Source: an uncultured Alphaproteobacteria bacterium (GTDB lineage Bacteria > Pseudomonadota > Alphaproteobacteria > HIMB59 > GCA-002718135). Taken from it: a DNA stretch of 64,000 nt. Shown here piece by piece: positions 12,220-31,292 of this stretch. The position numbers and the translations under genes were made by a program. Under the pieces are notes generated by a model. The model was not told the origin of the DNA. It searched no databases and saw nothing but the letters and a program-made list of their open reading frames with translations. Numbering within the stretch: the first letter of the stretch is position 1; each line of letters opens with the position of its first letter. The DNA is taken from assembly GCA_902567855.1 (NCBI GenBank), contig CACFOQ010000002.1, forward strand, positions 15,163 through 79,162, read 5' to 3'.

Positions 12220-12309
12220 GGAGAGGTGGCCGAGTGGTTGAAGGCGCCCGCTTGGAAAGCGTGTATAGTGGCAACACTATCGAGGGTTCGAATCCCTCTC
12301 TCTCCGCCA
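12220..12309 (+). tRNA. tRNA-Ser (anticodon GGA), intact, CCA encoded
   Basis: Acceptor GGAGAGG/TCTCTCC. Anticodon loop TTGGAAA (GGA at 12254-12256). Long variable arm tatagtg-gcaa-cactat. T-arm GAGGG-TTCGAAT-CCCTC. G discriminator plus CCA. 90 nt. Confidence 0.95.
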
Positions 12310-13165: not shown

Positions 13166-13174
13166 AATGAAAAA

Positions 13175-13942: not shown

Positions 13943-13963
13943 TGATTTTGAAAGTAAGAACTT

Positions 13964-14122: not shown

Positions 14123-14137
14123 GAATAAATAATATCC

Positions 14138-14165
14138 TCAACATTTCTCGTGGTTGGTGGTAGGA
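14138..14165 (+). repeat. 28-nt direct repeat, copy 2 (tcaacatttctcgtggttggtggtagga)
   Basis: See 13915-13942. Confidence 0.8.
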
Positions 14166-14192
14166 GTTTTAAAATGAATCCTCTTGGAAGAA

Positions 14193-14939
14193 TCATTTTA
14201 TTTTTTTATTAAAAACCACAGGCATTTTACCTTTCCACTGGAACCACAGATTAGGTTGTTCAATGCACTCACACATAAAATGAGCGACGTTTGCTCGTGT
14301 AGTAGTAAGTCCATTAAAAATAGTTTGAGGAGGTGTCGCTACTACTTCATAGTTCGAAATTTCAGCATTAATGAGTCCGTCTGGTCGGACCACTACCCAT
14401 TCAATAAATTCATTTTCTGAACCAATGTTATCTCTCAAAAAAGCAGCGGAGGCTTCATTATCATAATGTGGTGGTATGAGGTTGCGTAACAGAGATAAAA
14501 TAACTTTTTCGCTCGTGGTTACTCTCTCACCAGGATTGCGATTACCTACGGTGTTCATTAATAAAAATTTTGTTTTATCTAGAGAATGAGTAGCTTTAAT
14601 AGCTACACATAGACGTTTGACTGCTTCCAGAACAAGCGTTCTGGGCTTGCCAAATATTCCTTTAAAACTCATTGTGTGACCTAAGCAGCAAGCCACAGCA
14701 GCACAACCTTTTACGGCTTCCAACATTTGTTCGTCACTCAGATCAAGCAAACTTGCTTTTATGATTTTAAGCTTTGGATTTTCAAGAAGTTCTTGTGGAA
14801 ATTTATCGAGTGACCGAACAATAATTCGAAGGCTATAGCCGCGGACAAGCAGCTGTTTTACAAGAGGGAAACCTGTATTTCCTGTAGCCCCGACCACTAA
14901 AACTGTTTTAGAATTTGAATTGGTTTTTTCGGATGTCAT
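14193..14939 (-). CDS. NAD(P)H-binding atypical SDR (NmrA / flavin-reductase-like)
   Basis: N-terminal VVGATGNTG Rossmann motif. 248 aa. Confidence 0.7.
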   Translation of the reverse strand: MTSEKTNSNSKTVLVVGATGNTGFPLVKQLLVRGYSLRIIVRSLDKFPQELLENPKLKIIKASLLDLSDEQMLEAVKGCAAVACCLGHTMSFKGIFGKPRTLVLEAVKRLCVAIKATHSLDKTKFLLMNTVGNRNPGERVTTSEKVILSLLRNLIPPHYDNEASAAFLRDNIGSENEFIEWVVVRPDGLINAEISNYEVVATPPQTIFNGLTTTRANVAHFMCECIEQPNLWFQWKGKMPVVFNKKIK

Positions 14940-14952
14940 TTATGGTTATCTT

Positions 14953-16275: not shown

Positions 16276-16278
16276 AAG

Positions 16279-17373: not shown

Positions 17374-17436
17374 AATTATTTAAATTTTAGTTACTCACAA
17401 TTAGGCAAATTTTAAATTGATTTATTCAATATTTTG

Positions 17437-17461
17437 AATATTATTCATTAAAAATGAATAA
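17437..17461 (+). promoter_or_regulatory. Candidate operator in a divergent promoter (aatattattcatta; palindrome ttattcat-taaaa-atgaataa)
   Basis: The 14-mer aatattattcatta recurs exactly at 21611-21624, upstream of the LacI-family gene and binding-protein gene. Confidence 0.3.
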
Positions 17462-17479
17462 AATATAATTTTTCCTAAA

Positions 17480-18448
17480 ATGTCAATAGATATAGAAAAA
17501 CGTCTAGCAAGATTTAATGATCTTATTCCCAGTAAGATCCCTTTTGTAGAAGGTAAGTTAAAAGGTCATCAGGATAGAAAAAATTATTCAATTGTCGGAC
17601 CAGGGGTAAGTGAAGATTCTAAGCAAAATGTAAAAATTGCTGAAGCTCACGGATTTAATATCGGGGCTGTAAGTGCTGCCCCAATGAATGGTTCAGGATT
17701 GCATAGTCATACAACTGCCGAGGTGTTTATTATACATGCTGGTTCATGGCGTTTTTATTGGGGAGTAAATGGCGAAGAGGGCGAAGTAATTCTTAGCAAA
17801 GGAGATGTAGCATCATTTCCTACTAATATGTTTAGAGGATTTCAAAATGTTAGTGATGAAGAAGCCCTTATGTTTGTTGCGCTAGGTGAAGATGATCCAG
17901 GTGTTATTACGTGGACTCCAAGATTATTGAAAGAAGCAAATGAATCAGGAATGTTATTAATGGAAGATCGTTCATTGGTTGATCTTAATAAGCAAAAAGT
18001 GCCTGAGGGTAAGTTAGTAACAAAACCTCTTGAAGATAAGGAACTGGAAAGCTTTGACCATTATACCTCAGATGAAATTGAGAAATTTGTTATTCGTTAT
18101 AATGATAATAAAAATTATGTTGATGATGAACATTATAATTCAAATTCAATAATTAATTATTTAGATTCATTTGAAATACATGGAAAAAAAATTGAACCTA
18201 AAATTCCTCACAAAACAGGCTTTGGATTGACTCTATTAAAAGGTGTTTCAGCCCATATGCATGCGTATTCTATTAATTCATCTGAAGTTTATAATTGTTT
18301 AAATGGCAAGTGGGAAGTCACATGTAATGATGAGAAAGTTATTCTCGAACCACGTGATAGTTTCTCTGCTCCAAAGAATTCTACAAGAAGTGTAAAACAG
18401 ATAAGCAATGATGAGGGTAGTTTATTTATCGTTAGGCAATCAAATTAA
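17480..18448 (+). CDS. Bicupin-domain protein
   Basis: Cupin motif GSGLHSHTTAEVFIIHAG in the N-terminal half and a second cupin-like half (GVSAHMHAY...). Confidence 0.65.
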   Translation: MSIDIEKRLARFNDLIPSKIPFVEGKLKGHQDRKNYSIVGPGVSEDSKQNVKIAEAHGFNIGAVSAAPMNGSGLHSHTTAEVFIIHAGSWRFYWGVNGEEGEVILSKGDVASFPTNMFRGFQNVSDEEALMFVALGEDDPGVITWTPRLLKEANESGMLLMEDRSLVDLNKQKVPEGKLVTKPLEDKELESFDHYTSDEIEKFVIRYNDNKNYVDDEHYNSNSIINYLDSFEIHGKKIEPKIPHKTGFGLTLLKGVSAHMHAYSINSSEVYNCLNGKWEVTCNDEKVILEPRDSFSAPKNSTRSVKQISNDEGSLFIVRQSN

Positions 18449-18460
18449 TTTATTAAAAAT

Positions 18461-19432
18461 ATGAAGGGTTTTGATAAAAAATTTAAAGATCTGCCTGATT
18501 ATATTCTTAAGATTACCTATCAGATTTGGGAGGATAAAGATGTTGAGTCAATTAGGGAGTATTATGCAAAGGGAATTCCGGTAAGATCTCCTGATGGAGT
18601 TATCTACGGACCTGATAAAGTAGTAAAAGCAACTTATGCTACGCTTGACGAATTTCCAGATCGGCAACTTCTTGGAGAGGATGTTATTTTTATAGGTAAT
18701 GAAAATGATGGTTATTTATCTTCGCATCGTATTTTAACAAAAGCGACTCATCTAAATGATGGAGTTTACGGAAAAGCCACAGGAATTAAAATATCTTACA
18801 GAGTTATAGCAGATTGTGCTTGTAAAAATAATCAAGTTTATGATGAATGGTTGGTTAGAGATCAGGGAGCAATAGTCAGACAGTTAAATTTAGATCCAAA
18901 AACCTATGCTAAAACATTAATTGATAAGCAAGGCGGTGTAACAAAATGCTCTATACCTTTTAATCAAAATACACCTCTAGATTTAAAATATACCCAGTTA
19001 AGTTTGCCTAAAAATAACACTGGTTATGAATATGCTGAAATATTAAAAACTATATTTCAAAAGGATTTGGATAGTATTGAAAAATTTTATGACAGATCTA
19101 TTAATCAAGAACAACCTAGTGGTCTTAAAGCGTATGGAGTAGACGAGGTTAAATCTTTTTGGTCATCAATTTTTTCTTCCTTTCCTGAAGCGACATTTAA
19201 AATTGAACATGTCAGTTATCTGGATGAGCCTGCAGCATATAGAAAAGCAGCGATAAGATGGTCTTTAAATGGTATCCACTCTGGTCCTGGGTATTTTGGC
19301 AATCCTAGTCAAACAAAAGTTTATGTAATGGGAATTTCTCATGCAGAATTTGGTCCCAGAGGTATAAAAAATGAGTGGGTTTTATTTGATGAAACTGCAA
19401 TATGGAAACAAATTTTAATGAAAACTGGTTAA
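18461..19432 (+). CDS. NTF2-like / SnoaL-like two-domain protein
   Basis: 323 aa. The YQIWEDKDVESIREYYA start and repeated halves resemble ester-cyclase-like proteins. Confidence 0.45.
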   Translation: MKGFDKKFKDLPDYILKITYQIWEDKDVESIREYYAKGIPVRSPDGVIYGPDKVVKATYATLDEFPDRQLLGEDVIFIGNENDGYLSSHRILTKATHLNDGVYGKATGIKISYRVIADCACKNNQVYDEWLVRDQGAIVRQLNLDPKTYAKTLIDKQGGVTKCSIPFNQNTPLDLKYTQLSLPKNNTGYEYAEILKTIFQKDLDSIEKFYDRSINQEQPSGLKAYGVDEVKSFWSSIFSSFPEATFKIEHVSYLDEPAAYRKAAIRWSLNGIHSGPGYFGNPSQTKVYVMGISHAEFGPRGIKNEWVLFDETAIWKQILMKTG

Positions 19433-19445
19433 GGATAGATAAACA

Positions 19446-20576
19446 TTGAATACGAAAATTTTAACAACCCATGTTGGAAGTTTACCACGTTCAAAAACAT
19501 TATCTGAATTTCTTTTTGCTAAAGATAAGGGAGAAAGTTTTAATTTAAATGAGTTTGATGAAGTAGTATCTCAAAATGTGCATGAAATTGTAAAAAAACA
19601 ATTAGATATTGGTATTGATTTTATCAGTGATGGGGAAATGAGTAAAATCAGTTATGCTACCTATGTCAAAGAGAGAATAAATGGCTTTTCTGGAGAAAGT
19701 GAAAGAAGAGCTCCTGCTGATTTGGATGCATTTCCCGAATATAAAGAAAAAATTGCCAAAAGTGGTGGAACGCCTACTTATACCCGTCCCTGTTGTACTG
19801 GAGAGCTGTCACTTAAAAAAAATAGTGACCTTTTAAAAGATATAAATAATTTTACATCTGCTCTTAAATCAAACAACCATAAAAACGGCTTTATGAACTC
19901 TGCTTCACCAGGGGTTATAAATGTTTTTTTACCAAACAAATATTATAAAAATGATGATGAGTATCTTGAAAAACTATCTTCAATAATGTCTGATGAATAT
20001 GAAACAATTACATCAAAAAATTTATATTTACAAATTGATTGTCCTGATTTGGCTTTAGCTAGGCATATGAATTTCAAAGATATGGATGAAAAAAGTTTTT
20101 TACATCGCGCTGAAAAACAAATTGAAGCTCTCAATGCTTCTCTCGCAGCAGTTCCACAGGATCAAATTAGAATTCATATTTGCTGGGGTAATTATGAAGG
20201 GCCTCATACTTTTGATGTTGCTTTGGAAAAAATTTTACCAATTGTTCTAAAAGCTAAAACTAAATACCTGTTAATTGAGTCTTCAAATCCAAGACATGCT
20301 CATGAATGGAAGGTGTTTGAGAATATTAAATTACCAAAAGATAAAGTTATTGTTCCAGGGGTTATTGACTCGACATCAAATTTTGTTGAACATCCTGAAG
20401 TTGTTTCAGATCGACTTAGACAATTTGCAAGTGTTGTTCCAAAAGATCAGATTATGGCAGGTACAGATTGTGGTTTTAGTACATTTGCTGGATTTGGAAA
20501 AGTTGACGAGAAAATTTGTTATGAAAAATTAGGCTCCCTAGTTAAAGGTGCTAAAATAGCCTCAAATATAATTTGA
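19446..20576 (+). CDS. Cobalamin-independent methionine-synthase-family (MetE C-terminal-like) protein
   Basis: 376 aa. HICWGN (His/Cys) and GTDCGFS (Cys) Zn-ligand-like motifs. TTG start. Confidence 0.7.
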   Translation: MNTKILTTHVGSLPRSKTLSEFLFAKDKGESFNLNEFDEVVSQNVHEIVKKQLDIGIDFISDGEMSKISYATYVKERINGFSGESERRAPADLDAFPEYKEKIAKSGGTPTYTRPCCTGELSLKKNSDLLKDINNFTSALKSNNHKNGFMNSASPGVINVFLPNKYYKNDDEYLEKLSSIMSDEYETITSKNLYLQIDCPDLALARHMNFKDMDEKSFLHRAEKQIEALNASLAAVPQDQIRIHICWGNYEGPHTFDVALEKILPIVLKAKTKYLLIESSNPRHAHEWKVFENIKLPKDKVIVPGVIDSTSNFVEHPEVVSDRLRQFASVVPKDQIMAGTDCGFSTFAGFGKVDEKICYEKLGSLVKGAKIASNII

Positions 20577-20589
20577 ATTGTTAATTTTT

Positions 20590-21591
20590 TTATCTAGTTG
20601 TATTTCGATAAATAAATTTGCCCTGTATTACATGATTAACAGGCTCAAATTCTGGATCCTTTATATTATCATCTATAATTTGGGTAACAAGCTTTGACAT
20701 TTGTCTAATAGGTTGTCTAATTGTTGTTAAATTATATGAATACCAATTTGCTGTTGATATGTCATCATATCCAATTACCTCTATTTCTTTTGGGATATTT
20801 AATTTTGTATTTTCTTTAATATAATCAAGGCAACCAAAAGCCATAGTATCGTCAGCACAAAACAATGCTGTAATATTTTTTTTTAAAAGTTTTTTTGCTG
20901 ACTCGAAACCTCCTTCATATGTAAAATTTCCTTTTTCATGAAAAAATTTAATTTTGTTTAAATTTTTAAAATGGTTTTTAAAACCTTTACATCTTTCATT
21001 ACTTACAAAGGATCCAGTTGGTCCTTCAACCATTCCTATATTAATATGTCCATTGGTAATGAAATGTTCTGCCGCTGCTTCTCCCCCATATCTGTGATCA
21101 CAAGCTACAGAACTCAATGTGGGTATTTTCCAATTTCTATTAAAAGCGATAAGTTGAATTTGTTTGGATAAACAATTTTCTACAAATGCATCCGTAGGCT
21201 TTGTAGCCGAAACAATCGCAACTAATCTCTCTTTTAGGTAAGGTTGAATTAAGTTGTTATCAAGTTCTTCACCATCATCGGTTGTAATTAAAAGTATCCT
21301 GTACCCACTCATTCGAAGAGCCTCATGTAATTCAGTTAGGACTTCAGGATAATATCTATTGGTGATATAGGGTAATATTACGCCCACTAGCCCACCATCC
21401 ACTGATGAAGAAAAAGAATGCTGAATAGTTTGATGTTTATAGCCCAATTTTTTAGCAGCTTCGATGACGCGTAATTTTGTGCGATTTGAGATACTGGCTC
21501 CTTTGGTGAAGCACCGAGAGACTGCTGACTGGGATACACCAGCTAATGTGGCCACATTCTGGGATGTTGGATTCTTTAATTTAGTTTTCAT
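20590..21591 (-). CDS. LacI-family transcriptional regulator
   Basis: N-terminal HTH NVATLAGVSQSAVSRCF plus a periplasmic-binding-protein-like effector domain. Confidence 0.9.
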   Translation of the reverse strand: MKTKLKNPTSQNVATLAGVSQSAVSRCFTKGASISNRTKLRVIEAAKKLGYKHQTIQHSFSSSVDGGLVGVILPYITNRYYPEVLTELHEALRMSGYRILLITTDDGEELDNNLIQPYLKERLVAIVSATKPTDAFVENCLSKQIQLIAFNRNWKIPTLSSVACDHRYGGEAAAEHFITNGHINIGMVEGPTGSFVSNERCKGFKNHFKNLNKIKFFHEKGNFTYEGGFESAKKLLKKNITALFCADDTMAFGCLDYIKENTKLNIPKEIEVIGYDDISTANWYSYNLTTIRQPIRQMSKLVTQIIDDNIKDPEFEPVNHVIQGKFIYRNTTR

Positions 21592-21610
21592 TTATGCCTT
21601 TATCCACCGA

Positions 21611-21624
21611 AATATTATTCATTA
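21611..21624 (+). promoter_or_regulatory. Candidate operator (aatattattcatta) in the lacI / binding-protein intergenic region
   Basis: Exact 14-mer shared with 17437-17450. A nearby inverted repeat attgcat ... atgcaat lies at about 21625-21653. Confidence 0.3.
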
Positions 21625-21731
21625 CATTGCATATTTATTCAAAACAATGCAATATATTTATTATAAATATTTATAATATTAATTCTCTTAATATAACAAT
21701 TTATTTTAAGGGTAATTAATAAGGAGGAAAA

Positions 21732-22973
21732 ATGTTATTTAAAAAACTAATATTAGTTGGATTTATTTCCCTATTTTTCAGCTCATCTTTGTATGCAGCT
21801 GATTGTGGACCGAATGGGCAATCAATCCGAATTCTAGCAAGTGATTTTCCAGCAATTCACGCAATAGCAAATTCTGCTGAAAGTAATTGTGCAGGATCTG
21901 CTTCTGAATTCAATCGAAATCATACTACCGAAGCACGTCAAATAATGAATGCTGCTCAAACACCAAATCCAGCAGAGTATACTTCAGTTATTGTAGCTAA
22001 CTCTACCCTAGTTCAATTAATGAACGATGGACTTGTTAGACCATTAGATGATTTAGTTGAAAAATATGGTGGTCACTTAAAATCTAACCAACTGATAACT
22101 ATTGATGGAAAAATAATGGCAATAGCGTTTATGGCAAATTCTCAGCACATGTATTATAGAACAGATATTTTAGAAAAATCTGGGGTTGATGGAATACCAG
22201 CAACTTATGATGAAGTAATATCTGCTGCTGAAAAGATACGTGCAGCTGGTATCATGGAGCATCCACTTGTAATGAATCTCAAAGTCGGATGGAATGTTGG
22301 TGAAGTATTTAACACTATATACCTAGCACATGGTGGAGAATTCTTTAAGCCTGGTAGTGCTGAAGCATCTATTAATAATGCCAAAGGTGTTGCTGCTCTA
22401 GAAACAATGAAAGCTCTTGTAGAGTATGCTCACCCTGATCATTTAACGCAGGCATCTGATGATACGCAAGGATTATGGGAAGCTGGTCAAGCGGCAATTG
22501 GCTTTATGTGGGGTTCTCGTGGAGGAGTTATACTAGATAATGAAGGTTCTTCAGCTGAAGTGACTTCAAATACTGTTTTATCTGCAGCTCCAACTGTTAC
22601 TGGTGGCTCAATACCAGGAGCAACTCTATGGTGGGATGGAATAACTATAGCTACTAACGTGTCTGACAGTGAAGCAGAAGCAACGTTTGCAGCACTTGTA
22701 AGTGGTATGACTTCAGAAATGGTTGCTGCTAATAATGATGATGCAATTTGGTTAATTGATGGTTTTAAACCTGGTCCAGCTGCAGCAGGAGTTTCTGCAA
22801 CTGCTCAAGGCGGTGCTAAATCTTACCCGATGTTTGCTCAAATGGGATTATTGCACAATGCATTAGGTGCAGAGCTAGTTGATTTTTTAAAGGGATCTGA
22901 GAGCGCTGAACAAGCACTTAGTGATGTAGAGGCTGTTTACGAAACAGCTGCTAAAGACGCAGGTTATCTGTAG
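21732..22973 (+). CDS. ABC transporter extracellular solute-binding protein (family 1 / CUT1-like)
   Basis: Signal peptide, 413 aa, followed by MalF/MalG-type permeases. Confidence 0.75.
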   Translation: MLFKKLILVGFISLFFSSSLYAADCGPNGQSIRILASDFPAIHAIANSAESNCAGSASEFNRNHTTEARQIMNAAQTPNPAEYTSVIVANSTLVQLMNDGLVRPLDDLVEKYGGHLKSNQLITIDGKIMAIAFMANSQHMYYRTDILEKSGVDGIPATYDEVISAAEKIRAAGIMEHPLVMNLKVGWNVGEVFNTIYLAHGGEFFKPGSAEASINNAKGVAALETMKALVEYAHPDHLTQASDDTQGLWEAGQAAIGFMWGSRGGVILDNEGSSAEVTSNTVLSAAPTVTGGSIPGATLWWDGITIATNVSDSEAEATFAALVSGMTSEMVAANNDDAIWLIDGFKPGPAAAGVSATAQGGAKSYPMFAQMGLLHNALGAELVDFLKGSESAEQALSDVEAVYETAAKDAGYL

Positions 22974-22995
22974 TCAATATAAATAAATCAGTAAA

Positions 22996-23023
22996 AAGGG
23001 GTTTTCAAATTTGAAAACCCCTT
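22996..23023 (+). terminator. Perfect 14+14 palindrome after the binding-protein gene (attenuator or stabiliser hairpin)
   Basis: aaggggttttcaaa/tttgaaaacccctt. Only a weak T-tract follows. Confidence 0.45.
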
Positions 23024-23053
23024 GTATCTTTCTATGTAATTTAAAATCGCATA

Positions 23054-24088
23054 ATGAAGCACAGCACATTCTTATTATTTTCTCTTCCTTCATTAAGTGT
23101 AATGTTTTTATTTATTGCAATACCTATAGTTTCTGTTTTTATTCAATCTCTGCATATTGAGCATAAACAAGTAATAATTGTTACAGAAAATTGTGATCCT
23201 TTTGGATGTGAGACAACAACAGCTGTGGATACTGAAGCTTCCGCAAAGTTAAAAGAAAAAGCACCTCTTGGTAAATTTAATGGATTTAAAACATATTCAA
23301 ACAGAATGCATTTTGCATTTGATGAAGTAGGAGAAGCTTGGAAGAGCTCGGATAGTTTTACAGTTTTTACTAAAAAATTATATAATTACCCCCTATATAG
23401 AGCGCTCAGTTTCACTCTTACTTACACCTTCGTAGTTACTCCTTTTGTCTTATTTCTTGGTTTTTTAGTTGCCGTTGGAGTTAATAATCTTCCAAAGATG
23501 TTTAAAGGTCCAACAATTTTTGCATCTCTTCTTCCAATGATAGTTACACCTCTTGTTGGTTCATTGATACTTTTCTGGATGGTTGACGGTGATGGTGTGA
23601 TTGGGGCTACACTCCAAAAAATATTTAATGATAATTCTCTTAGCTTGAAAGCATCACCTGTGCTTACCTGGATTATGTTGATGGTATACGGTATTTGGCA
23701 TTTGATGCCTTTTAGTTTTATTGTTTTTTATGCAGGTCTTCAAACGGTTCCTCAAGAAACAATAGAGGCGGCAACAATAGATGGCGCATCAAAATTTCAA
23801 AGAATACGCCACGTTGTTATTCCTCATTTAATGCCACTTGCTATTTTCATCACTTTAATACTTTTGATGGATAATTTTAGAGTTTTTGAACCAATCATAG
23901 GTTTTAGAGCAGAAGCGCACGCCACCTCAATATCGTGGTTAATATGGAATCATTTGCGAGAAAGTGCTTACCCTCTCTATAACGCCGCAGGTGCTACATC
24001 TATGGTTACTATTTTTGGTGTAGCAATTTTACTCTTGCCCGTACTAATTCGAACATGGCGAGATTTTAAAGAAAAAAATAAAGGTTAG
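23054..24088 (+). CDS. ABC transporter permease (MalF-like)
   Basis: EAA loop EAATIDGASKFQRIRHVVIP. Large periplasmic loop after TM1. Confidence 0.85.
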   Translation: MKHSTFLLFSLPSLSVMFLFIAIPIVSVFIQSLHIEHKQVIIVTENCDPFGCETTTAVDTEASAKLKEKAPLGKFNGFKTYSNRMHFAFDEVGEAWKSSDSFTVFTKKLYNYPLYRALSFTLTYTFVVTPFVLFLGFLVAVGVNNLPKMFKGPTIFASLLPMIVTPLVGSLILFWMVDGDGVIGATLQKIFNDNSLSLKASPVLTWIMLMVYGIWHLMPFSFIVFYAGLQTVPQETIEAATIDGASKFQRIRHVVIPHLMPLAIFITLILLMDNFRVFEPIIGFRAEAHATSISWLIWNHLRESAYPLYNAAGATSMVTIFGVAILLLPVLIRTWRDFKEKNKG

Positions 24089-24094
24089 GAATTT

Positions 24095-24976
24095 GTGAAT
24101 ACAAAAATTGAAAATAAATTAACCCCAGTTCGTATTATTGCTTTTATATTTGTGGCTCTGTGGTTGGTTATTGCTATGTTTCCTTTTATTTGGACATTGT
24201 GGGGATCTTTCAAAGTACAAGCTGATTTTTTTTCAAAAGCTGATTGGTCAAATGCAATATTTGGCTTTCATACTGAAAAACAAACAGGCGGTTTTTTTAC
24301 TATGGATGGATATTATGGCTCTTGGATTGAAGAAGAATTTTGGCGTGCCGTTATTAATACAAGCATAGTAGTATTTTTTACAGTTTTAATTTCTCTTACT
24401 TTTGGAACTTTAGGTGGTTATGCTCTTGCAAGGTCTACTTATCGTTATGCCTTCTGGATTTTAATGGCAGGTCTGATCTTTCGTGCGATGCCTCATATGA
24501 CTTTGATTTCAGGATATCTTCAACCTTTTTTTGCATGGAATGTTTGGGGAATTTTGCCTACAACAATAATTGTGCTTGTTGCAATTAACCAACCTTTTAC
24601 TCTGTGGATGCTACATTCATTTTTTTTAAACATACCAAAAGATTTAGATGAAAGCGCTATGTGCGATGGTTGTAATAGATTTCAAGCATTTAGATATGTG
24701 ATCATTCCTATAATGTGGCCAGGGGTAATCACTACTGGATTATTTAGTTTCCTTCTTGCTTACAATGATTTTACAGTTACATCCATGTTGCTTTCAGATG
24801 AAAATGAAACAATGATTCCAGCAATTGCAAGTTTTCTAGGTACTGTCCAAGAAGAAGGTAAAGTAATGTATGCTGTAGCAGCCGTTGTTTCAGCAACTGC
24901 TCCATTATTCTTTTTTGTACTGTTTTTTCAAAGACAGATTGTTAGTGGATTAACAGCTGGAGCAGTAAAAGGTTAA
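24095..24976 (+). CDS. ABC transporter permease (MalG-like)
   Basis: EAA loop ESAMCDGCNRFQAFRYVIIP. GTG start. Confidence 0.85.
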   Translation: MNTKIENKLTPVRIIAFIFVALWLVIAMFPFIWTLWGSFKVQADFFSKADWSNAIFGFHTEKQTGGFFTMDGYYGSWIEEEFWRAVINTSIVVFFTVLISLTFGTLGGYALARSTYRYAFWILMAGLIFRAMPHMTLISGYLQPFFAWNVWGILPTTIIVLVAINQPFTLWMLHSFFLNIPKDLDESAMCDGCNRFQAFRYVIIPIMWPGVITTGLFSFLLAYNDFTVTSMLLSDENETMIPAIASFLGTVQEEGKVMYAVAAVVSATAPLFFFVLFFQRQIVSGLTAGAVKG

Positions 24977-24981
24977 AAGTA

Positions 24982-26055
24982 ATGAAATCAGAGCAATTAA
25001 AAAAATACTTTGAAGATTATCAAATAGCTACTCAAAATTTTAATAAAAATTCAATAAATAATTCTCTAACTAAATACTTCTCAGAACATTCTGTGTTTCA
25101 ATTCTGTTATCCCTTTGGAACGTTTAATGGATTAGATAATTTTTTATCTAATTGTATCAATCCTCTTTTAGAAAGTATTCCAGATCTTGAAAGAAGAGAT
25201 ATGATTGTTATGGCAGGCACAACACCTGAAGATAAACACTGGGTAGGTACTATGGGTAATTATATGGGAACATTTTTAAAATCATTTTTAGATATTCCAC
25301 CAACTGGTAATTTAGTTCATATGCGTTATCATGAGTTTTTCCAAATTGAAAATAATCAGATTATAGAAATGCAATCAATATGGGATCTACCTGAACTGAT
25401 GATCCAGGCCAATGCATGGCCAATGAGTCCTCAGCTAGGATCTTTTTTATGTACACCATCTCCGATGACCGGAGACGGTTTAAAAATAAAAGGCGATGGA
25501 TCAAAAAATTTTGATCTTGTGATTAATATGCTTCAAGACATGGTTTTACACCCTAGTAATCCAGATCCACAAGTTATGAATTTAGATAAGTATTGGCACC
25601 CCAGATTTAATTGGTATGGACCAGCTGGAATTGGAACTGGAAGAGGTATAGCAGGATTTCGCCATTGGCATCAAATACCCTTCTTACGTGCAATGCCGGA
25701 TAGAAAGGGAGGTTCATCAAATGATAGCTTAAAAAATGAGGGATTGAAGGATATGCTAACTCATTGGATATATGAAGGAGATTATGTCTGTGAAACTGGT
25801 TGGCCAAATATGCGATCTACAATATCACAAGATGGATGGATGGGTATTGCTCCTTCAAACCAGATTATAGAAATGCGGAGTTTAGATTTTTGGAGAGTTG
25901 AAAATAATCTTATAAGGGAGAATTGGGTTTTAGTAGATCTTCTGGATGTTTATCAGCAAATAGGCGTTAATGTTTTTGATAGAATAAAAGAATTTAACAA
26001 AGCAAGAAATGTTGGTGATATTAACATTTCTCAAGGACTTGATTTAATTAAATAA
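24982..26055 (+). CDS. NTF2-like / SnoaL-like two-domain protein; paralog of 16279..17373
   Basis: Block-wise similarity to 16279..17373, as listed for that feature. Confidence 0.5.
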   Translation: MKSEQLKKYFEDYQIATQNFNKNSINNSLTKYFSEHSVFQFCYPFGTFNGLDNFLSNCINPLLESIPDLERRDMIVMAGTTPEDKHWVGTMGNYMGTFLKSFLDIPPTGNLVHMRYHEFFQIENNQIIEMQSIWDLPELMIQANAWPMSPQLGSFLCTPSPMTGDGLKIKGDGSKNFDLVINMLQDMVLHPSNPDPQVMNLDKYWHPRFNWYGPAGIGTGRGIAGFRHWHQIPFLRAMPDRKGGSSNDSLKNEGLKDMLTHWIYEGDYVCETGWPNMRSTISQDGWMGIAPSNQIIEMRSLDFWRVENNLIRENWVLVDLLDVYQQIGVNVFDRIKEFNKARNVGDINISQGLDLIK

Positions 26056-26072
26056 ATATTGATATAGAAGAA

Positions 26073-26840
26073 ATGTATTTACAAAAATTTGAAGTCAAAA
26101 ACAAAACTGCATTAGTAACGGGAGCAGGAAAAGGTTTGGGAAAAGCATGTGCTATTGCTTTGGCTGAGGCAGGAGCCAATCTCATTATATTAAGTCGTAC
26201 CAAAACTGACTTAACAAAAGTTGAAAAACAAATAATAAAATTAAATAGAAAATGTCGATCAATCGTATGTGATGTAACAAATTATGAAGATGTAAAAAAA
26301 ACTTTTTCCTCCATATCTAAGTTAGATATTCTTGTTAATAATGCTGGAACTAATAGACCTGAATATTTTACAAAAATTAAAAAAAAAGATATGGATGATG
26401 TTGTTGATTTGAATATTAAAGCCGCATTTCATATTGCACAATTGGCTTCAAAAATAATGCTAAGATCCAAAAATCGAAAGAAAGTTGGGGCTTCCATAAT
26501 AAATATGTCTTCTCAATTAGGAAAAGTAGGAGCTCCACGCCGAAGTGTTTACAATATGACGAAATTTGGAATTGAAGGATTAACCAAAGGAATGGCTGTG
26601 GATTTAGCTAAACATAATATTCGTGTCAATTCAGTTTGTCCCACATTTGTTAAAACGCCAATGGTTGAAAAGTTTTTTAAAGATAAAGAATTTATGAAAT
26701 CTGTATTAAAAAACATTCCTTTAGGCAGAATAGGTTCAGAAAGCGATATTGCTACAGCTGTAGTGTATCTAGCCTCCAATGCATCATCAATGATTACTGG
26801 CTCATCATTAGTAATAGATGGTGGTTGGACAGCAAAATAA
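26073..26840 (+). CDS. Short-chain dehydrogenase/reductase (classical SDR)
   Basis: TGAGKGLG cofactor motif, NNAG, catalytic YNMTK. Confidence 0.9.
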   Translation: MYLQKFEVKNKTALVTGAGKGLGKACAIALAEAGANLIILSRTKTDLTKVEKQIIKLNRKCRSIVCDVTNYEDVKKTFSSISKLDILVNNAGTNRPEYFTKIKKKDMDDVVDLNIKAAFHIAQLASKIMLRSKNRKKVGASIINMSSQLGKVGAPRRSVYNMTKFGIEGLTKGMAVDLAKHNIRVNSVCPTFVKTPMVEKFFKDKEFMKSVLKNIPLGRIGSESDIATAVVYLASNASSMITGSSLVIDGGWTAK

Positions 26841-26851
26841 TTAAAATTTCT

Positions 26852-26872
26852 CGGCGCACATACGGCGCACTT
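26852..26872 (+). repeat. Barcode 2R: cggcgcacat-a-cggcgcactt
   Basis: Identical to 2L. CACAT begins 85 nt before the fragment 3 core. Starts 12 nt after the SDR stop. Confidence 0.85.
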
Positions 26873-26941
26873 AGACACCCGGTATTTACATTTTCACGTT
26901 TAATTTTTCCTAGAAACCTTACACTTTGTTTTTAATCAGCA

Positions 26942-27002
26942 CGCTTGGAAAGCGTGTGTAGTAGCAATACTACCGAGGGTTCGAATCCCTCTCTCTCCGC
27001 CA
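26942..27002 (+). repeat. tRNA-Ser 3' fragment 3 (61 nt; variable-arm allele B tgtagta-gcaa-tactac)
   Basis: Differs from the intact gene only by two compensatory pairs in the variable arm. Preceded by ..tttaatcagca. Confidence 0.95.
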
Positions 27003-27047
27003 AAAACTTAATTTTTTCTTTAACGATTTTTCTGTAATTTTAAATCT

Positions 27048-27068
27048 GGTCTCACATAGGTCTCATTT
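27048..27068 (+). repeat. Barcode 3L: ggtctcacat-a-ggtctcattt
   Basis: CACAT begins 51 nt after the fragment 3 CCA. Confidence 0.8.
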
Positions 27069-27090
27069 TAAGAATAAATAAAATATTATT

Positions 27091-27285
27091 TTAATACAAG
27101 GAAATACCTCCTCGATGATTAATAGTAATAGTTCCTGATAGATATTCTGCAAATGCTTCTTTTACACCAAATAGTTCGTTTACTATTGGAAAAGAAAATG
27201 CGTTTAAGACTATACCTATTGCAAAAACAGCAAGAATTAGTTTAACCGATTTTTCTAATTTTATTTCATAAGTTACTTTTTTCAT
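27091..27285 (-). CDS. Small single-TM protein (64 aa)
   Basis: ATG preceded by aaggat. One central hydrophobic helix (LILAVFAIGIVLNAFSFPIV). Confidence 0.5.
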   Translation of the reverse strand: MKKVTYEIKLEKSVKLILAVFAIGIVLNAFSFPIVNELFGVKEAFAEYLSGTITINHRGGISLY

Positions 27286-27352
27286 TTTTAATCCTTTGTT
27301 TAAATTATTTAAAGATTACAATATTCTTTGTATTGTTTTTGTAAATTAATTT

Positions 27353-27373
27353 GGTCTTACTTTGGTCTCACTA
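27353..27373 (+). repeat. Barcode 3R: ggtcttactt-t-ggtctcacta
   Basis: Decayed copy of 3L. It sits 84 nt before the fragment 4 core. Confidence 0.7.
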
Positions 27374-27441
27374 CCTAAGTTAAAAACTATAAATTAACCC
27401 TAAATAATCTTTGTTTTTTGTAGAAATTTATAAAATCAGCA

Positions 27442-27502
27442 CGCTTGGAAAGCGTGTATAGTGGCAACACTATCGAGGGTTCGAATCCCTCTCTCTCCGC
27501 CA
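27442..27502 (+). repeat. tRNA-Ser 3' fragment 4 (61 nt; allele A)
   Basis: Identical to 12249-12309. Preceded by ..ataaaatcagca. Confidence 0.95.
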
Positions 27503-27547
27503 TAAATTAAGATTTTCCTTTAACAATTTTTCAGCAAAAATATGTTT

Positions 27548-27568
27548 CGACACACATACGGCGCACTT
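27548..27568 (+). repeat. Barcode 4L: cgacacacat-a-cggcgcactt
   Basis: CACAT begins 51 nt after the fragment 4 CCA. The first unit is decayed. Confidence 0.8.
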
Positions 27569-27617
27569 TGCAACCTATTTTTTATCTACATTTTATATAG
27601 TTGGTGGTAATATTATC

Positions 27618-28061
27618 TTGATGCAAAAGTTTATCAATATAGCCATTTTATTAATGTTGTTTTTTTTTGCAAATAATGTTTTAGGAAAGACTTTAGTGGC
27701 TAAATATTATTGTATAGCAAATGATTTAGTTGGAGTTGAATACTATCCGAATAAAAAATCTTCAGTATTTAATTTAAACAATGAAAATAATCATTTTAAA
27801 CTTAAAATATTTAAAAAAGAAAATGAATATTTTTTTGAGACCGGACTAGCAACCGATTTATGGTTATGGGATTCTATGAAAGGATCATCTGATCCTTATG
27901 GTCCATGGACTACTCTGAATGGATATTTAAAACTTTTTAAAGCAAGTGATAAATTAAGATTTGTTTTATTGCAAGAAACAATAGGAAAAGGTAATAATGA
28001 AGTAGATCGTTTGGCTCATTCGAATGTATATTTGTATGACGGAACATGTCATAGAAATTAA
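27618..28061 (+). CDS. Secreted hypothetical protein (147 aa)
   Basis: Signal peptide (..FFFANNVLGK). Cys near each end. ATG at 27621. Its stop abuts the next start. Confidence 0.55.
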   Translation: MMQKFINIAILLMLFFFANNVLGKTLVAKYYCIANDLVGVEYYPNKKSSVFNLNNENNHFKLKIFKKENEYFFETGLATDLWLWDSMKGSSDPYGPWTTLNGYLKLFKASDKLRFVLLQETIGKGNNEVDRLAHSNVYLYDGTCHRN

Positions 28062-29288
28062 ATGACCAATATAGTTAAATTAAAATACGATTATTTAATG
28101 CATTTAGAATATGTTGGTGAAGTTAAGGATGGCTTGCCCCATGGACAAGGTACATTCAATATATATGGAGAAATATTATTTAAAGAATTAATTAAAAAAC
28201 TAAGAAACAAGGAATCAAAGGAAGGTGAGTACAAACATTTATCTAGCCACACACTTACCTCCGAATATCTTCAGCCACTTATAGAATTTTCTTTAAAAGA
28301 AAGTGAGCCAAAAGATTTTGACCAAGATGTTTTGGAAATGTCTATTAGGGGTAACTTTAAAGAAGGTCTTTGGGACGGACGCTTTTTCAGGATTCATTAT
28401 GATGTTATAAATGGAACAGAAAGTGAAGAAGGTGAAGAAGAAGAAGATTTTGAGATACATGCTGAAGGAATGATTTTTGAAAATAATATTATGGTTGAAG
28501 GAAGATTAGATTATGATGAAGGACATTATTTTGGTGAAGTTTTATATAATGAATTGTTTAGTCACGCTTTTAGAAAACAAATTAAAAATTCTATAGAAGG
28601 CAAAAAAATAGATTCTAAAAAACTCCCTGGAACTCTTTATTATCCTCATAATGAAGGATCATATCATTATCATGATCCGAATAACGAAAAATGGATTAGG
28701 GGCACTTGGGTAAAAGGCGAATTAACTAAAATTGACTACATACATGAATGCAAAGTTTTTCCAAACAATGATATTTATGAAGGAGGTACCAAAATAGATA
28801 ATATCAAAATATCTAAAGATTGGAGAATCAAGATAGATAGTTCTGGGATACCCGATGGTTATGGACAGATGGTTTCGGGAAGAAAGCACGATCAAGATGA
28901 TGATGGTTCTCAAATATATTATGGAATGTGGAAAGATGGCATAATGCATGGAAAAGGAACACTGATTGAAAAGGGAGAGTATACAAATATTGGTGATTTA
29001 CGAAACTACGATACACATCCTTTTGAAGCAAAAAAATATGTTGGCGAGATGAAAAATGGAAAAGCTAACGGTGAGGGAGTGCTGAGTTATATTAGAATAA
29101 AGAAAGACGTGATACCAAAAACTTTTTGGCAAAGTATCAATGACCAAGATTTTCCCCCGGAAGAAACTAAATTTTATGAGGGATCTTTCAAAGATAATTT
29201 ATTTCATGGACAAGGAACAATTTTTTATCATGATGGAACATCAAAGAAAGGTGAGTGGGTTAACGGAAAATTTAAAGAAAATAATTAA
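28062..29288 (+). CDS. MORN-repeat protein (408 aa)
   Basis: Repeated Y.G....G..HG.G motifs (YVGEVKDGLPHGQGTF, YYGMWKDGIMHGKGTL, YVGEMKNGKANGEGVL, YEGSFKDNLFHGQGTI). No signal peptide. Confidence 0.75.
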   Translation: MTNIVKLKYDYLMHLEYVGEVKDGLPHGQGTFNIYGEILFKELIKKLRNKESKEGEYKHLSSHTLTSEYLQPLIEFSLKESEPKDFDQDVLEMSIRGNFKEGLWDGRFFRIHYDVINGTESEEGEEEEDFEIHAEGMIFENNIMVEGRLDYDEGHYFGEVLYNELFSHAFRKQIKNSIEGKKIDSKKLPGTLYYPHNEGSYHYHDPNNEKWIRGTWVKGELTKIDYIHECKVFPNNDIYEGGTKIDNIKISKDWRIKIDSSGIPDGYGQMVSGRKHDQDDDGSQIYYGMWKDGIMHGKGTLIEKGEYTNIGDLRNYDTHPFEAKKYVGEMKNGKANGEGVLSYIRIKKDVIPKTFWQSINDQDFPPEETKFYEGSFKDNLFHGQGTIFYHDGTSKKGEWVNGKFKENN

Positions 29289-29295
29289 AATTTCT

Positions 29296-29316
29296 CGGCG
29301 CACATACGCCCTACTT
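29296..29316 (+). repeat. Barcode 4R: cggcgcacat-a-cgccctactt
   Basis: 85 nt before the fragment 5 core. The second unit is decayed. Starts 8 nt after the MORN gene stop. Confidence 0.8.
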
Positions 29317-29385
29317 ACACACCCGATATTTAAATTTTAACGTTTAATTTTTCCTAGAAACCCTACACTTTGTTTTTAATCAGCA

Positions 29386-29446
29386 CGCTTGGAAAGCGTG
29401 TGTAGTAGCAATACTACCGAGGGTTCGAATCCCTCTCTCTCCGCCA
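29386..29446 (+). repeat. tRNA-Ser 3' fragment 5 (61 nt; allele B)
   Basis: Identical to fragment 3. Preceded by ..tttaatcagca. Confidence 0.95.
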
Positions 29447-29492
29447 TAAATTTACAACTATAAAATACAAAATTAGGTTTTAATAGAGTTTT

Positions 29493-29513
29493 TGGCACAC
29501 ATATGGCACACTT
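29493..29513 (+). repeat. Barcode 5L: tggcacacat-a-tggcacactt
   Basis: CACAT begins 52 nt after the fragment 5 CCA, even though the intervening sequence is unrelated to the other left arms. Confidence 0.85.
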
Positions 29514-29571
29514 GCTAAAAAATAAATTATTATAGTTTTTTTATGGACTGTTTATTAGCTTATATTTTTAT

Positions 29572-30768
29572 ATGAATAAAATTATCTTATTTTTAATTTT
29601 GATAATTCCTTGTATTTCAAATGCTCAAATGAATATTTATGAAAATAATGCAAACTATATTATTTCAGGAGTTTTAGATTATTCTTATTGCACCGATACT
29701 ACTAGTTTTGATGAAGATAAAAGAAAAGATTATGAGTTATATGAAATATTTAACGCAAACTTTAAACAAATAAATCAAAATTATTTTTTAAAAGATAATC
29801 AAGTAACAAATGAAAATGTACTTAAAAAAATTGATGAAATTATAAGTTTAAAAAATAATAATTTGTTTATTTTTTATTTTGCGGGCCACGGTGTTTTAAA
29901 AGATGGAGAGCCTGGAATGTTAATGAGTGATTGCTCTGTAATTAAAAAATCAGAACTTAAAAATATTTTAAAGAAAAAAAACAATAAACAAAAAATTATA
30001 TTATTAGGAGATTTTTGTTATTCAGGACTATTAGCAGAAATTGCTAGAGAACTAAATTCAGAAGGATTAGATATTAACGCAATAACTAGCGCTAGTTCAA
30101 ACGTCTCAACTGGTTCATGGAGTTATACGCAAGCTTTAATCGACTCTTTTTCAGGAAGGCAAATTGTTGATAAAAACAATGATGGTCTAATAACTTTTTT
30201 TGATATGATTAATGAAGTTGAAGAAGTAATGTTAAATAGAGAAAGACAAAAATCTGACTACTTTATAACTGCAGATTTAAAGAATGTAATAATTTCTAAA
30301 TCAAAAATAAAAGATAAATCTAATATAAATTATGGTTCATGGTATTGTTCTAATGAAGGTATAACTAGAGTTATAGATATAAAGAATTCTATCTATGAAG
30401 TAGAATATTATAACTACAATAAATATGAATATAAAAAATTAAGTGAAAAAGATTTATATTCAATCCACGAAACAGATTTTGAAAAAGGCGATTTAATATC
30501 GGTTGTCTGGGAAAATGATAATTATGAAGCAAAAATAAAAAAGATCGATAGAATTTTTTATAAAATCTCTTATGTAGGTTGGGGTGATGAGTGGGATGAG
30601 TGGATTACAAAAAATAGAATCACTGGAAATGAAAAAGTAGAAATCAAATCTGATAACGTTTGGTATCCTGGAGAAATCATTCAATATAAGAATAATAAAT
30701 ATTTTATTAGATATAAAGATTATGATTTTTGTTTTGATGAATGGGTTGATAATTCTAGAATAAGATAA
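29572..30768 (+). CDS. Secreted caspase-like (peptidase C14-type His/Cys dyad) protein with two C-terminal Tudor/Agenet-like domains
   Basis: Signal peptide. FYFAGHG (His) and LLGDFCYSG (Cys) about 46 aa apart. C-terminal repeats GDLISVVWENDNYEAKIKKI..YKISYVGWGDEWDEWI and VEIKSDNVWYPGEIIQYKNNKYFIRYKDYDFCFDEWV. Confidence 0.65.
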   Translation: MNKIILFLILIIPCISNAQMNIYENNANYIISGVLDYSYCTDTTSFDEDKRKDYELYEIFNANFKQINQNYFLKDNQVTNENVLKKIDEIISLKNNNLFIFYFAGHGVLKDGEPGMLMSDCSVIKKSELKNILKKKNNKQKIILLGDFCYSGLLAEIARELNSEGLDINAITSASSNVSTGSWSYTQALIDSFSGRQIVDKNNDGLITFFDMINEVEEVMLNRERQKSDYFITADLKNVIISKSKIKDKSNINYGSWYCSNEGITRVIDIKNSIYEVEYYNYNKYEYKKLSEKDLYSIHETDFEKGDLISVVWENDNYEAKIKKIDRIFYKISYVGWGDEWDEWITKNRITGNEKVEIKSDNVWYPGEIIQYKNNKYFIRYKDYDFCFDEWVDNSRIR

Positions 30769-30774
30769 TTTTCT

Positions 30775-30795
30775 TGGCACACATATGGCACACTA
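30775..30795 (+). repeat. Barcode 5R: tggcacacat-a-tggcacacta
   Basis: 84 nt before the fragment 6 core. Starts 7 nt after the stop codon. Confidence 0.85.
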
Positions 30796-30863
30796 TCCAG
30801 ATCAATAATTAATATTTTATTCTAAATAACCTTTGTAATCCCTTAACTCTCTAAAAATCAGCA

Positions 30864-30924
30864 CGCTTGGAAAGCGTGTAAAGTAGCAATACTTTCGAGG
30901 GTTCGAATCCCTCTCTCTCCGCCA
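30864..30924 (+). repeat. tRNA-Ser 3' fragment 6, terminal (61 nt; allele C taaagta-gcaa-tacttt)
   Basis: Unique allele, again with compensatory pairs. No conserved box or barcode follows it. Candidate displaced original 3' half. Confidence 0.95.
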
Positions 30925-30998: not shown

Positions 30999-31292
30999 AT
31001 GATTTACGTAATTGCTAAGTTGCCATGTCATGAAGAAGGGGCATCAAAACTTGCTGATTGGGCAAAAGGTAACGATGGATTTTCAGTAACAAGATCTCAT
31101 AAGGGTTTTAAGCATATCGAACTTTTGGTTGGTGAAAATAATAAAACATGTTGGTTGTATGAACAATGGGAGACAAAAGAGGATCATCAAGCATATTTAG
31201 GCTTTAGAATTGATAATGGTTTTGAAGATTTTATGAAAGAAATATTGGAAGATGAATTTTCACTTTCTTATCTTACGAATGCAGGTGCATGA
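30999..31292 (+). CDS. ABM-domain (antibiotic-biosynthesis-monooxygenase-like) small protein
   Basis: 97 aa with ferredoxin-like pattern ..WLYEQWETKEDHQAYL... Strong aaggag RBS. Confidence 0.5.
   Translation: MIYVIAKLPCHEEGASKLADWAKGNDGFSVTRSHKGFKHIELLVGENNKTCWLYEQWETKEDHQAYLGFRIDNGFEDFMKEILEDEFSLSYLTNAGA

Follow-up and report, generated by a model that had tools for sequence, protein, structure and literature searches.

What would a caspase-like peptidase, apparently built for export and carried on a small mobile cassette, be doing in the streamlined genome of a marine alphaproteobacterium? The question is raised by a gene in a 64,000-nucleotide stretch of DNA from an uncultured member of the HIMB59 lineage (NCBI GenBank assembly GCA_902567855.1, contig CACFOQ010000002.1, positions 15,163 to 79,162 of the forward strand; referred to throughout, at its full length, as the window), a low-GC stretch with a GC content of 29.7%. 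The gene, predicted to encode an exported caspase-like peptidase with three chromo-like barrels, occupies 29572..30768 on the plus strand, as do all of the mapped features of the protein, the flanking motifs and the tRNA sequences described below. It is a complete open reading frame (ORF) with an ATG start and 398 amino acids (aa) followed by a stop codon, and its product is identical to record P0001 of a public, NCBI-derived protein collection. A preliminary description, prepared by a model from the letters of the sequence and a list of its ORFs, had given the same coordinates and length, which match the ORF list exactly, and had proposed a secreted protease joined to two ligand-reading domains. 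Here it is proposed that the protein is probably a Sec-exported cysteine endopeptidase of the caspase-hemoglobinase fold, equipped with an EF-hand-type loop, tethered through its barrels, and carried as the cargo of a mobile cassette that lacks its own integrase.

Export is suggested by the N-terminus of the protein, MNKIILFLILIIPCISNAQ, which combines a basic residue (K3), a 9-residue hydrophobic core, a Pro at -6 and the tripeptide S-N-A before Q (-3/-1). Read by sequence rules, these n, h and c regions make up a predicted Sec signal peptide of aa 1-18 (29572..29625; MNKIILFLILIIPCISNA before Q) with a signal peptidase I-type site and no lipobox, much as the preliminary description had supposed. 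The N-terminus is also closely like that of the distant homolog P0014 (…ISQAQ before F), and 127 of the 155 family members used for all of the residue conservation counts given here, each of at least 330 aa, have a hydrophobic segment at the N-terminus. A full-length AlphaFold model, computed from the 20-sequence alignment A2, has a mean predicted local distance difference test (pLDDT) score of 88 and a predicted template modelling (pTM) score of 0.87, with pLDDT values below 50 confined to residues 1-17. That translation begins at 29572 is supported by the homolog P0002, in which the 19-codon N-terminal extension has been kept (3 substitutions in 19 codons, no indel) while the upstream DNA is unrelated; in the 87%-identical homolog L085, DNA similarity begins 11 nt before the ATG at 29572. 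To judge from this signal, the mature protein is most likely Sec-exported, and would be either periplasmic or extracellular.

The body of the enzyme, aa ~24-245 (29641..30306), is a peptidase domain of the caspase-hemoglobinase fold (clan CD, C14-like), as assigned from Foldseek and profile comparisons. Foldseek searches of the PDB returned the MALT1 paracaspase, Dronc, caspase-9, Arabidopsis metacaspase-9, legumain and GSU0716 of Geobacter, all with a probability of 1.0 and with TM-scores that reach 0.65 on the target, and a profile of the family matched Arabidopsis metacaspase-4 (AtMC4) among PDB sequences with E=8.5e-8; the caspase/metacaspase fold proposed in the preliminary description is supported by these matches. 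In the profile alignment, FYFAGHG of the window protein falls on HYSGHG of AtMC4, and DFCYSG on DSCHSG, motifs which we take to carry the catalytic His and Cys of the plant enzyme. The predicted catalytic residues of the window protein are His106 (codon 29887..29889), within FYFAGHG (aa 101-107), and Cys149 (codon 30016..30018), within LLGDFCYSG (aa 144-152). His106 is invariant in alignments A1 and A2 and is a His in 152 of the 155 relatives, and Cys149, in the GDFCYSG motif aligned to DSCHSG, is a Cys in 153 of them. The dyad suggested earlier from these two motifs, which do pair with those of AtMC4, is therefore retained, with the correction that 43 residues, and not about 46, separate His106 from Cys149. 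Conservation extends to Asp147, two residues ahead of Cys149 (153/155), to Arg51 (152/155) and to Asp53 (151/155). The Asp-x-Cys arrangement resembles that of Arg-specific metacaspases and of MALT1, and by analogy it suggests, without proving, that the predicted peptidase prefers a basic P1 residue.

The likeness to metacaspases, orthocaspases and the paracaspase (MEROPS C14B; AtMC4 6W8S, AtMC9, MALT1) takes in the common fold, the order and spacing of His and Cys, the D-x-C motif and a probable Ca2+ dependence. There are nevertheless several differences. Metacaspase profile matches end at about profile position 166 and cover the His-to-Cys core only. Further on, the region TSASSNVSTGSW (aa 172-183) is conserved in the family and lacks the Asp residues of the metacaspase p10-type motif SGCxDxQTSAD, an acidic Ca2+/S1 motif that is not recognised as such in the window protein. 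Likewise, the predicted Ca2+ site of the window protein is an EF-hand loop placed elsewhere than the site of metacaspases, the protein carries C-terminal barrels that are absent from metacaspases, orthocaspases and MALT1, and it is predicted to be exported, whereas most metacaspases are cytosolic.

The EF-hand-type loop, a feature missed by the preliminary description, lies at aa 200-211 (30169..30204; DKNNDGLITFFD). It is embedded in the peptidase domain, between helices that the model places at aa 184-194 and 209-224, giving a helix-loop-helix arrangement. The family pattern, D-x-[DN]-x-[DN]-G-x-[IVL]-x-x-x-[ED], is 88-99% conserved per position across the 155 members and fits the canonical 12-residue EF-hand pattern, D-x-[DNS]-x-[DNS]-G-x-[ILV]-x-x-x-[DE]. 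Because the loop is conserved in the family and lies between helices in the model, Ca2+ dependence of the peptidase is predicted.

Following the peptidase domain, the full-length model and a separate AlphaFold model of aa 245-398 (pLDDT 91) both contain three small beta-barrels, at aa ~255-297, 305-350 and 353-398, and not two as had been proposed. Barrel 1 (30334..30462) is a divergent chromo-like/SH3-fold domain with four strands at aa 257-291 in both models; it was overlooked earlier because it has no DEW motif. Among the relatives, its W257 position is aromatic in 86% and its Y282 position in 94%. Barrel 2 (30484..30621) is chromo-barrel/Tudor-knot-like. When aa 300-398 were searched alone with phmmer, the matches were the chromo barrels of MRG701 (rice, E=1e-5), an EAF3 homolog, MRG2 (Arabidopsis), MOF and MRG15 (human), with E values of 1e-5 to 4e-4 for MRG701, EAF3, MRG2 and MRG15. 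In the alignment of barrel 2 the positions YEAK...Y.GW..WDEW are shared, as illustrated by YEAKIKKI..DRIFYKISYVGWGDEWDEWITKNRI in the window protein and YEAKVQKS..DEWRYHVHYLGWSKSWDEWVTNDRL in a chromo barrel. Residues Y318, Y334, W337 and W341 of this barrel match positions that we take to form the aromatic cage of MRG15, and all four positions are aromatic in 80-94% of the 155 relatives. Barrel 3 (30628..30765) is Agenet/Tudor-knot-like, with matches at aa 354-398 to Pfam Agenet (33.9 bits, E=4e-8, against a cut-off of 27) and Pfam Tudor-knot (21.8 bits against 20.8), and it was aligned by phmmer to the chromo barrel of MOF. Its Y365, Y381, Y384 and F388 occupy places equivalent to the cage positions of barrel 2, and the barrel as a whole is absent from about one-third of relatives.

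At the level of structure, Foldseek matched the barrel module to the triple Tudor of SETDB1, the three MBT repeats of L3MBTL1/3, the tandem Agenet of FMRP/FXR1/FXR2, the Agenet domains of ADCP1 and the KOW array of SPT5. Together with the Pfam matches above their cut-offs and the chromo-barrel matches, this bears out the Tudor/Agenet type named in the preliminary description, and in sequence the barrels are closest to chromo barrels of the MRG/EAF3 type, with the aromatic-cage positions kept. The window protein shares with the Royal family of methyl-lysine readers (the MRG15, MRG2, MRG701, EAF3 and MOF chromo barrels and the Agenet/Tudor domains) both the barrel fold and the signature Y-x-x-x-Y-x-G-W-x-x-x-W-D-E-W-[VI]-x-x-x-R-[IV], with all four cage positions aligned. 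Unlike the eukaryotic readers, its barrels belong to an extracytoplasmic bacterial setting without chromatin, and three of them are packed against a protease.

The family to which the protein belongs is large. Its layout recurs in 18 close and at least 458 distant relatives, far more than chance would give. A word-indexed search recovered 18-27 relatives, an exhaustive search of 1.84 billion cluster representatives with a hidden Markov model (HMM) recovered 458 at E<1e-30, and about 70 of the best 150 HMM matches span essentially the whole profile. A scan of a genome collection found at least 179 loci, and the matches listed include members in Ignavibacteria, Bacteroidota, Elusimicrobiota, Myxococcota, Planctomycetota, Chloroflexota and Acidobacteriota. 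The nearest homolog among the genome-collection matches listed is that of the marine single-cell genome AG-447-L18, at 56% identity.

The domain combination has already been described in other bacteria by sequence analysis, and the window protein adds a member. According to Kaur, Iyer, Subramanian & Aravind 2018 (Sci Rep 8:6196; PMC5906684), caspase-like peptidases are among the commonest partners of secreted bacterial chromo-like domains, the fusion occurs in planctomycetes, cyanobacteria, bacteroidetes and chloroflexi, EF-hands are among the other partner domains, and aromatic-cage binding to methyl-lysine-like moieties in murein or extracellular-matrix peptides is predicted. The signal peptide, the caspase-like peptidase, the tandem SH3-fold chromo-like barrels and the aromatic cage are all shared with the family as set out there, and the distribution matches as well, with Planctomycetota, Bacteroidota and Chloroflexota among the homolog loci found here. 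The preliminary view that such barrels are rare as partners of secreted proteases is contradicted by that account of a common partner, and by the at least 179 loci and 458 representatives recovered. On the other hand, a gene in a streamlined marine alphaproteobacterium, on a tRNA-anchored cassette, is unlike the hosts listed in the accessible text of PMC5906684, which likewise makes no mention of an EF-hand loop inside the peptidase domain or of a count of three barrels.

The cassette itself belongs to an array. A complete tRNA-Ser(GGA) gene at 12220..12309, identified with ARAGORN and Rfam, anchors five cassettes that extend over 12310-30924. The last 28 nt of this tRNA recur in five perfect downstream copies ending at 13731, 27002, 27502, 29446 and 30924, giving six copies in the window against 0 expected, and each partial copy reaches back to the D-arm, over about 69 nt (alignment A3); it is by these five partial copies that the five stacked cassettes are defined. 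Cassette 5 comprises 29447-30924 (1,478 bp), with the protease gene as its sole gene. Its left boundary is a partial tRNA-Ser(GGA) from D-arm to 3' end (29378..29446) and its right boundary is the fifth and last partial copy (30856..30924), both recognised by the 28-nt match and alignment A3. Beyond the array, core genes follow, with ABM at 30999 and PhyH at 31389.

That cassette 5 has moved is shown by the metagenome contig L082, where it is present at 97.9% identity over 1.6 kb, both tRNA pieces included. There, the cassette stands directly after a complete tRNA-Ser, itself directly after lepA, and is followed by nucleotidyl-transferase and epimerase genes. Further copies occur on contigs L083 and L084, both of which break inside the flanking repeats, and cassette copies at 98-99% nucleotide identity are present in at least three further metagenome samples. 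The mobility assumed in the preliminary description is upheld by this cassette, 98% identical and at another array position, in a genome with a lepA that shares 80% identity with that of the window, and movement as a unit between related marine alphaproteobacterial genomes is supported. Given that the flanking lepA is only 80% identical, this is a clean case of a single-gene cassette moved between genomes.

Arrays of this general kind are known. Hackl et al. (bioRxiv 10.1101/2020.12.28.424599) describe Prochlorococcus tycheposons as stacked elements separated by partial tRNA copies, and PMC11796062 reports that partial tRNA repeats mark cassette insertions in SAR11 islands. The stacked variable cargo, the partial tRNA spacers and the shared units described in the two sources are all seen here. 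Unlike in tycheposons, no recombinase or other mobility gene was found in the scanned ORFs of the 18.6-kb array, neither a tyrosine recombinase nor a replication gene, and the array is therefore not classed as a tycheposon. In its behaviour, cassette 5 resembles a cargo unit without an integrase, or a remnant, and an integrase acting in trans is presumed. A search for the attachment (att) sequence in viral contigs gave no match. The tRNA-Ser sequence of the window is shared by at least 120 contigs from marine metagenomes, and the cargo downstream of it is highly varied, including glycosyltransferases, epimerases, methyltransferases and transporters. The protease gene was on none of the 80 such contigs sampled, and is therefore a rare cargo at this site.

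Within cassette 5, the gene is bracketed by two direct copies of a tandem 8-mer motif, TGGCACAC-ATA-TGGCACAC (2 matches against 0 expected), one upstream (29493..29511) and one 7 nt after the stop codon (30775..30793). Both copies also occur in the cassette copies on L082, L083 and L084. In each of the five cassettes the cargo lies between two direct copies of such a motif, which is about 20 nt long and is built from an 8-mer repeated in tandem every 11 nt; the motifs are at 12355, 13581, 13777, 26852, 27048, 27352, 27548, 29296, 29493 and 30775. The 8-mers, spaced by ATA, are GGTTGCAC, CGGCGCAC, GGTCTCAC, CGACACAC/CGGCGCAC (degenerate) and TGGCACAC in cassettes 1 to 5, respectively, so that the motif is alike within a cassette and differs between cassettes. 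A left arm with the X-ATA-X pattern also follows the full tRNA-Ser in about 25-30 of 80 marine metagenome contigs. The tandem 8-mer could be a duplication arising from cargo capture, a binding site for a recombinase or excisionase, or an iteron. A sigma-54 promoter reading of TGGCACAC-ATA-TGGCACAC was rejected, as GG-N10-GC fits two of the four motif variants, and a scan of the cassette for sigma-70 promoters and terminators gave counts near those of shuffled sequence and was uninformative. Cassette-specific brackets of this kind find no mention in the accessible text of Hackl et al. or PMC11796062, and they are more unusual than the protein itself.

The anchoring tRNA has peculiarities of its own. 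In the tRNA-Ser(GGA) of the window, pair 28:42 of the anticodon stem is a C:U mismatch (CCCGC/GCGTG), while the partial copies and the L082-type tRNA (L082 520-609) have CACGC/GCGTG in the anticodon stem. The D-arm piece found in the partial copies, TTTAATCAGCA, is likewise that of the L082-type allele, the common one in marine metagenomes. These sequences suggest that the 3' part of the window tRNA-Ser derives from an incoming element, with a crossover in the anticodon stem-loop.

How would the protein work? From homology, we infer a sequence of export, Ca2+ binding, tethering and cleavage. The signal peptide would be removed after Ala18 on export. Ca2+, which is abundant outside the cytoplasm, would then bind the loop at aa 200-211 and stabilise or activate the peptidase. 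Barrels 2 and 3, with their cages of the MRG15 type, would hold the enzyme to ligands that are methyl-lysine-like or cationic, with a methylated or quaternary amine, on targets that could be envelope, matrix or foreign proteins. The Cys149/His106 dyad would cleave nearby peptide bonds, possibly after basic residues, and the outcome would be the processing of envelope or matrix proteins or the degradation of exogenous protein. The cassette, for its part, would have been integrated by a recombinase supplied in trans.

Several observations weigh against this proposal. The family is defined by computation only, and its activity, Ca2+ dependence, ligand and location are what we infer; a literature search found no experimental work on it after PMC5906684. 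The C14 assignment of the preliminary description stands at the level of profile and structure but not for the single sequence, which scored 21.2 bits with Pfam Peptidase_C14 (PF00656), 0.2 bits under the cut-off of 21.4, in an alignment limited to aa 75-150; PF00656 matches are, however, precomputed for several close homologs. An hhalign comparison of human caspase-3 with the family profile gave no usable alignment. The score with Pfam EF-hand_1 was 13.7 bits (E=0.047, aa 198-212), where the cut-off is 25.4, so the feature is called an EF-hand-type loop and not a Pfam EF-hand domain. A signal peptide is missing from the marine clade nearest to the window protein, P0003-P0012 (56-65% identity), and nine of the ten members of this clade (P0004-P0012) have Lys at EF-hand position 5, which means that neither export nor Ca2+ binding is universal in the family. 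Finally, no integrase Pfam domain was found in the scanned ORFs of the array (12416-29288) or in the flanking ORFs, and no integrase was among the 25 families listed, of 61 matched, for 46 representative ORFs that follow tRNA-Ser on contigs from marine metagenomes.

The marine clade also provides the basis for a reading in which the window protein is cytoplasmic, with translation from Met20 (ATG 29629) and the upstream 19 codons left untranslated. All ten of these relatives start exactly at the residue aligned with Met20 and have no upstream extension; L001 (gene 608-1768) has a stop codon two codons ahead of the ATG, and in L002 (gene 10001-11161) the ATG overlaps the end of the preceding gene. 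Against this, the extension has been preserved in P0002 free of indels next to unrelated upstream DNA, and it has all of the features of a signal peptide, resembles the P0014 N-terminus and has its like in most of the family (127/155), so that we give translation from Met20 only a slender chance. From their sequences, P0003-P0012 may be a cytoplasmic, Ca2+-independent offshoot. The genes of this clade lie in ordinary chromosomal settings with no tRNA fragments; in AG-447-L18, for instance, the gene follows one for a GDSL/SGNH esterase. In a further alternative, the gene would be inactive or decaying cargo, a pseudoprotease that is retained only for its binding or that drifts within an old cassette. 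Cassette 5 is the farthest from the tRNA and would be the oldest under the tycheposon integration model of Hackl et al., it is poorer in GC (24%) than the window (30%), and the barrels of its protein differ from those of P0002 by 31 non-synonymous against 24 synonymous changes. Yet the reading frame is intact, His106, Cys149, Asp147, the EF-hand ligands and all family-invariant residues are present, and nearly identical copies (98-99%) persist in the three or more further metagenome samples; decay is, in our estimate, the least probable of the explanations weighed here.

The two remaining alternatives accept a working caspase-fold enzyme and differ in its purpose. The preliminary description had mentioned conflict or programmed death, and a caspase-like executioner, comparable to an orthocaspase, a CHAT protease or the proteases associated with type III CRISPR systems, would be in keeping with the caspase fold and with a gene in a mobile, variable island. 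Database matches in this direction are weak: PADLOC returned a generic 'caspase' match (17.6 bits, E=4e-4) and no significant match to a defence-system protein with partner genes, NCBIfam caspase_w_EACC1 reached 29 bits against a cut-off of 140, a Pfam scan gave no CHAT family match, and a viral structure library returned giant-virus caspases only. The predicted Sec signal would place the protein outside the cytoplasm, and the cassette holds a single gene, with no sensor, NTPase or partner. When ORFs within 7 kb of 80 homolog loci from many phyla were clustered, no conserved neighbour emerged; the most frequent non-self cluster, a generic ABC ATPase, occurred at 12 of the 80, and recurrent neighbours were lineage-specific (ABC ATPase, BNR/type IX secretion system (T9SS) protein, DUF4126, DUF1361, aspS, E1 dehydrogenase, Ser/Thr kinase). 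The Sec signal, the sub-threshold matches and the lack of a conserved neighbour together argue against an intracellular suicide or defence effector, which we consider highly improbable, although the protein may have an antagonistic role outside the cell. A nutritional exoprotease would depart from our proposal in its target only. Such an enzyme would be released to degrade dissolved or particulate protein, with the barrels anchoring it to the substrate or the cell surface and the peptides imported by transporters such as the oligopeptide ATP-binding cassette (ABC) system at 49061-50887. The signal peptide and peptidase domain fit this role, a gene for an oligopeptide-binding protein is present in the same window, and tRNA-Ser island cargo in marine metagenomes is often related to transport or uptake. 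Clan CD enzymes, however, are typically selective processing enzymes and not bulk degraders, the aromatic-cage barrels point to a specific ligand, and the lack of a conserved neighbour leaves no link to a transporter; bulk nutrition is thus unlikely to be the purpose. An exported, barrel-tethered endopeptidase remains the reading that we favour.

A bolder interpretation, which we consider doubtful, is that the barrels are true readers directing a Ca2+-gated protease to marked extracellular targets and, separately, that the tRNA-Ser(GGA) array is a novel integrase-less cassette platform. If the former were true, a post-translational mark, for instance methyl-lysine carried by proteins of the outer membrane, pilus, S-layer or phage, would be read by an extracellular reader-plus-effector device older than eukaryotic chromatin readers. 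If the latter were true, the platform, with each cargo between copies of its own tandem 8-mer, could be a means of capturing or shuffling cassettes that differs from those of integrons and tycheposons. Taken alone, the window protein changes no current view, and its genomic context is also of a known kind, that of tycheposons and SAR11 islands. The family is nonetheless large and widespread, and because the window protein is small (~45 kDa when mature), modelled at high confidence and has barrels that are unusually MRG15-like, it is a convenient candidate for finding the ligands of bacterial chromo-like domains, which bear on the origin of eukaryotic chromatin readers. For marine microbiology, the predicted exported protease is one example of the flexible, rarely met cargo that a streamlined genome can carry at a tRNA-Ser island hotspot.

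The other cassettes of the array carry quite different cargo. Cassette 2 (13732-27002) is 13.3 kb long and, with a GC content of 33.7%, higher in GC than the window. It encodes a histidinol-dehydrogenase-family enzyme named as sulfopropanediol 3-dehydrogenase, three SnoaL-domain proteins, a cupin, a MetE-like protein, a LacI regulator, an ABC sugar-type transporter and a short-chain dehydrogenase/reductase (SDR), and from these genes it looks like a putative island for organosulfonate catabolism of the 2,3-dihydroxypropane-1-sulfonate (DHPS) type. The 90%-identity cluster of one cassette-2 gene includes members from MarineAlpha5 bins, a group described as HIMB59-related. Cassette 3 (27003-27502) is the smallest, at 500 bp, and has as its only ORF a minus-strand frame of 64 aa (27091-27285), in which there is one hydrophobic segment; the cassette perhaps comes near to an 'empty' platform. 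Cassette 4 (27503-29446) holds two genes, one for a 147-aa protein that has a signal-like N-terminus but matched no family and one for a 408-aa MORN-repeat protein; the two are translationally coupled, with the TAA stop directly followed by ATG (28061/28062). The MORN protein belongs to a 90%-identity cluster of seven members, all of them from marine metagenomes.

Outside the array, lepA and tRNA-Ser are separated in the window by about 10.8 kb (1397-12219), in which there are a sugar ABC transporter (6222-10254) and several ORFs that matched no family. As tRNA-Ser directly follows lepA on L082 (1-520), the region upstream of the tRNA also varies from one related genome to another. Downstream of the island, a bacterial small signal recognition particle (SRP) RNA (Rfam RF00169, 53.3 bits) is found at 53978-54072, which fits a stretch of core genome. 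Finally, the ABM-family monooxygenase gene that follows the array (30999-31292, 97 aa) has 82% protein identity to a gene of AG-447-L18 (L002 5275-5568), which in that genome lies 4.4 kb upstream of the protease copy, in a different arrangement.

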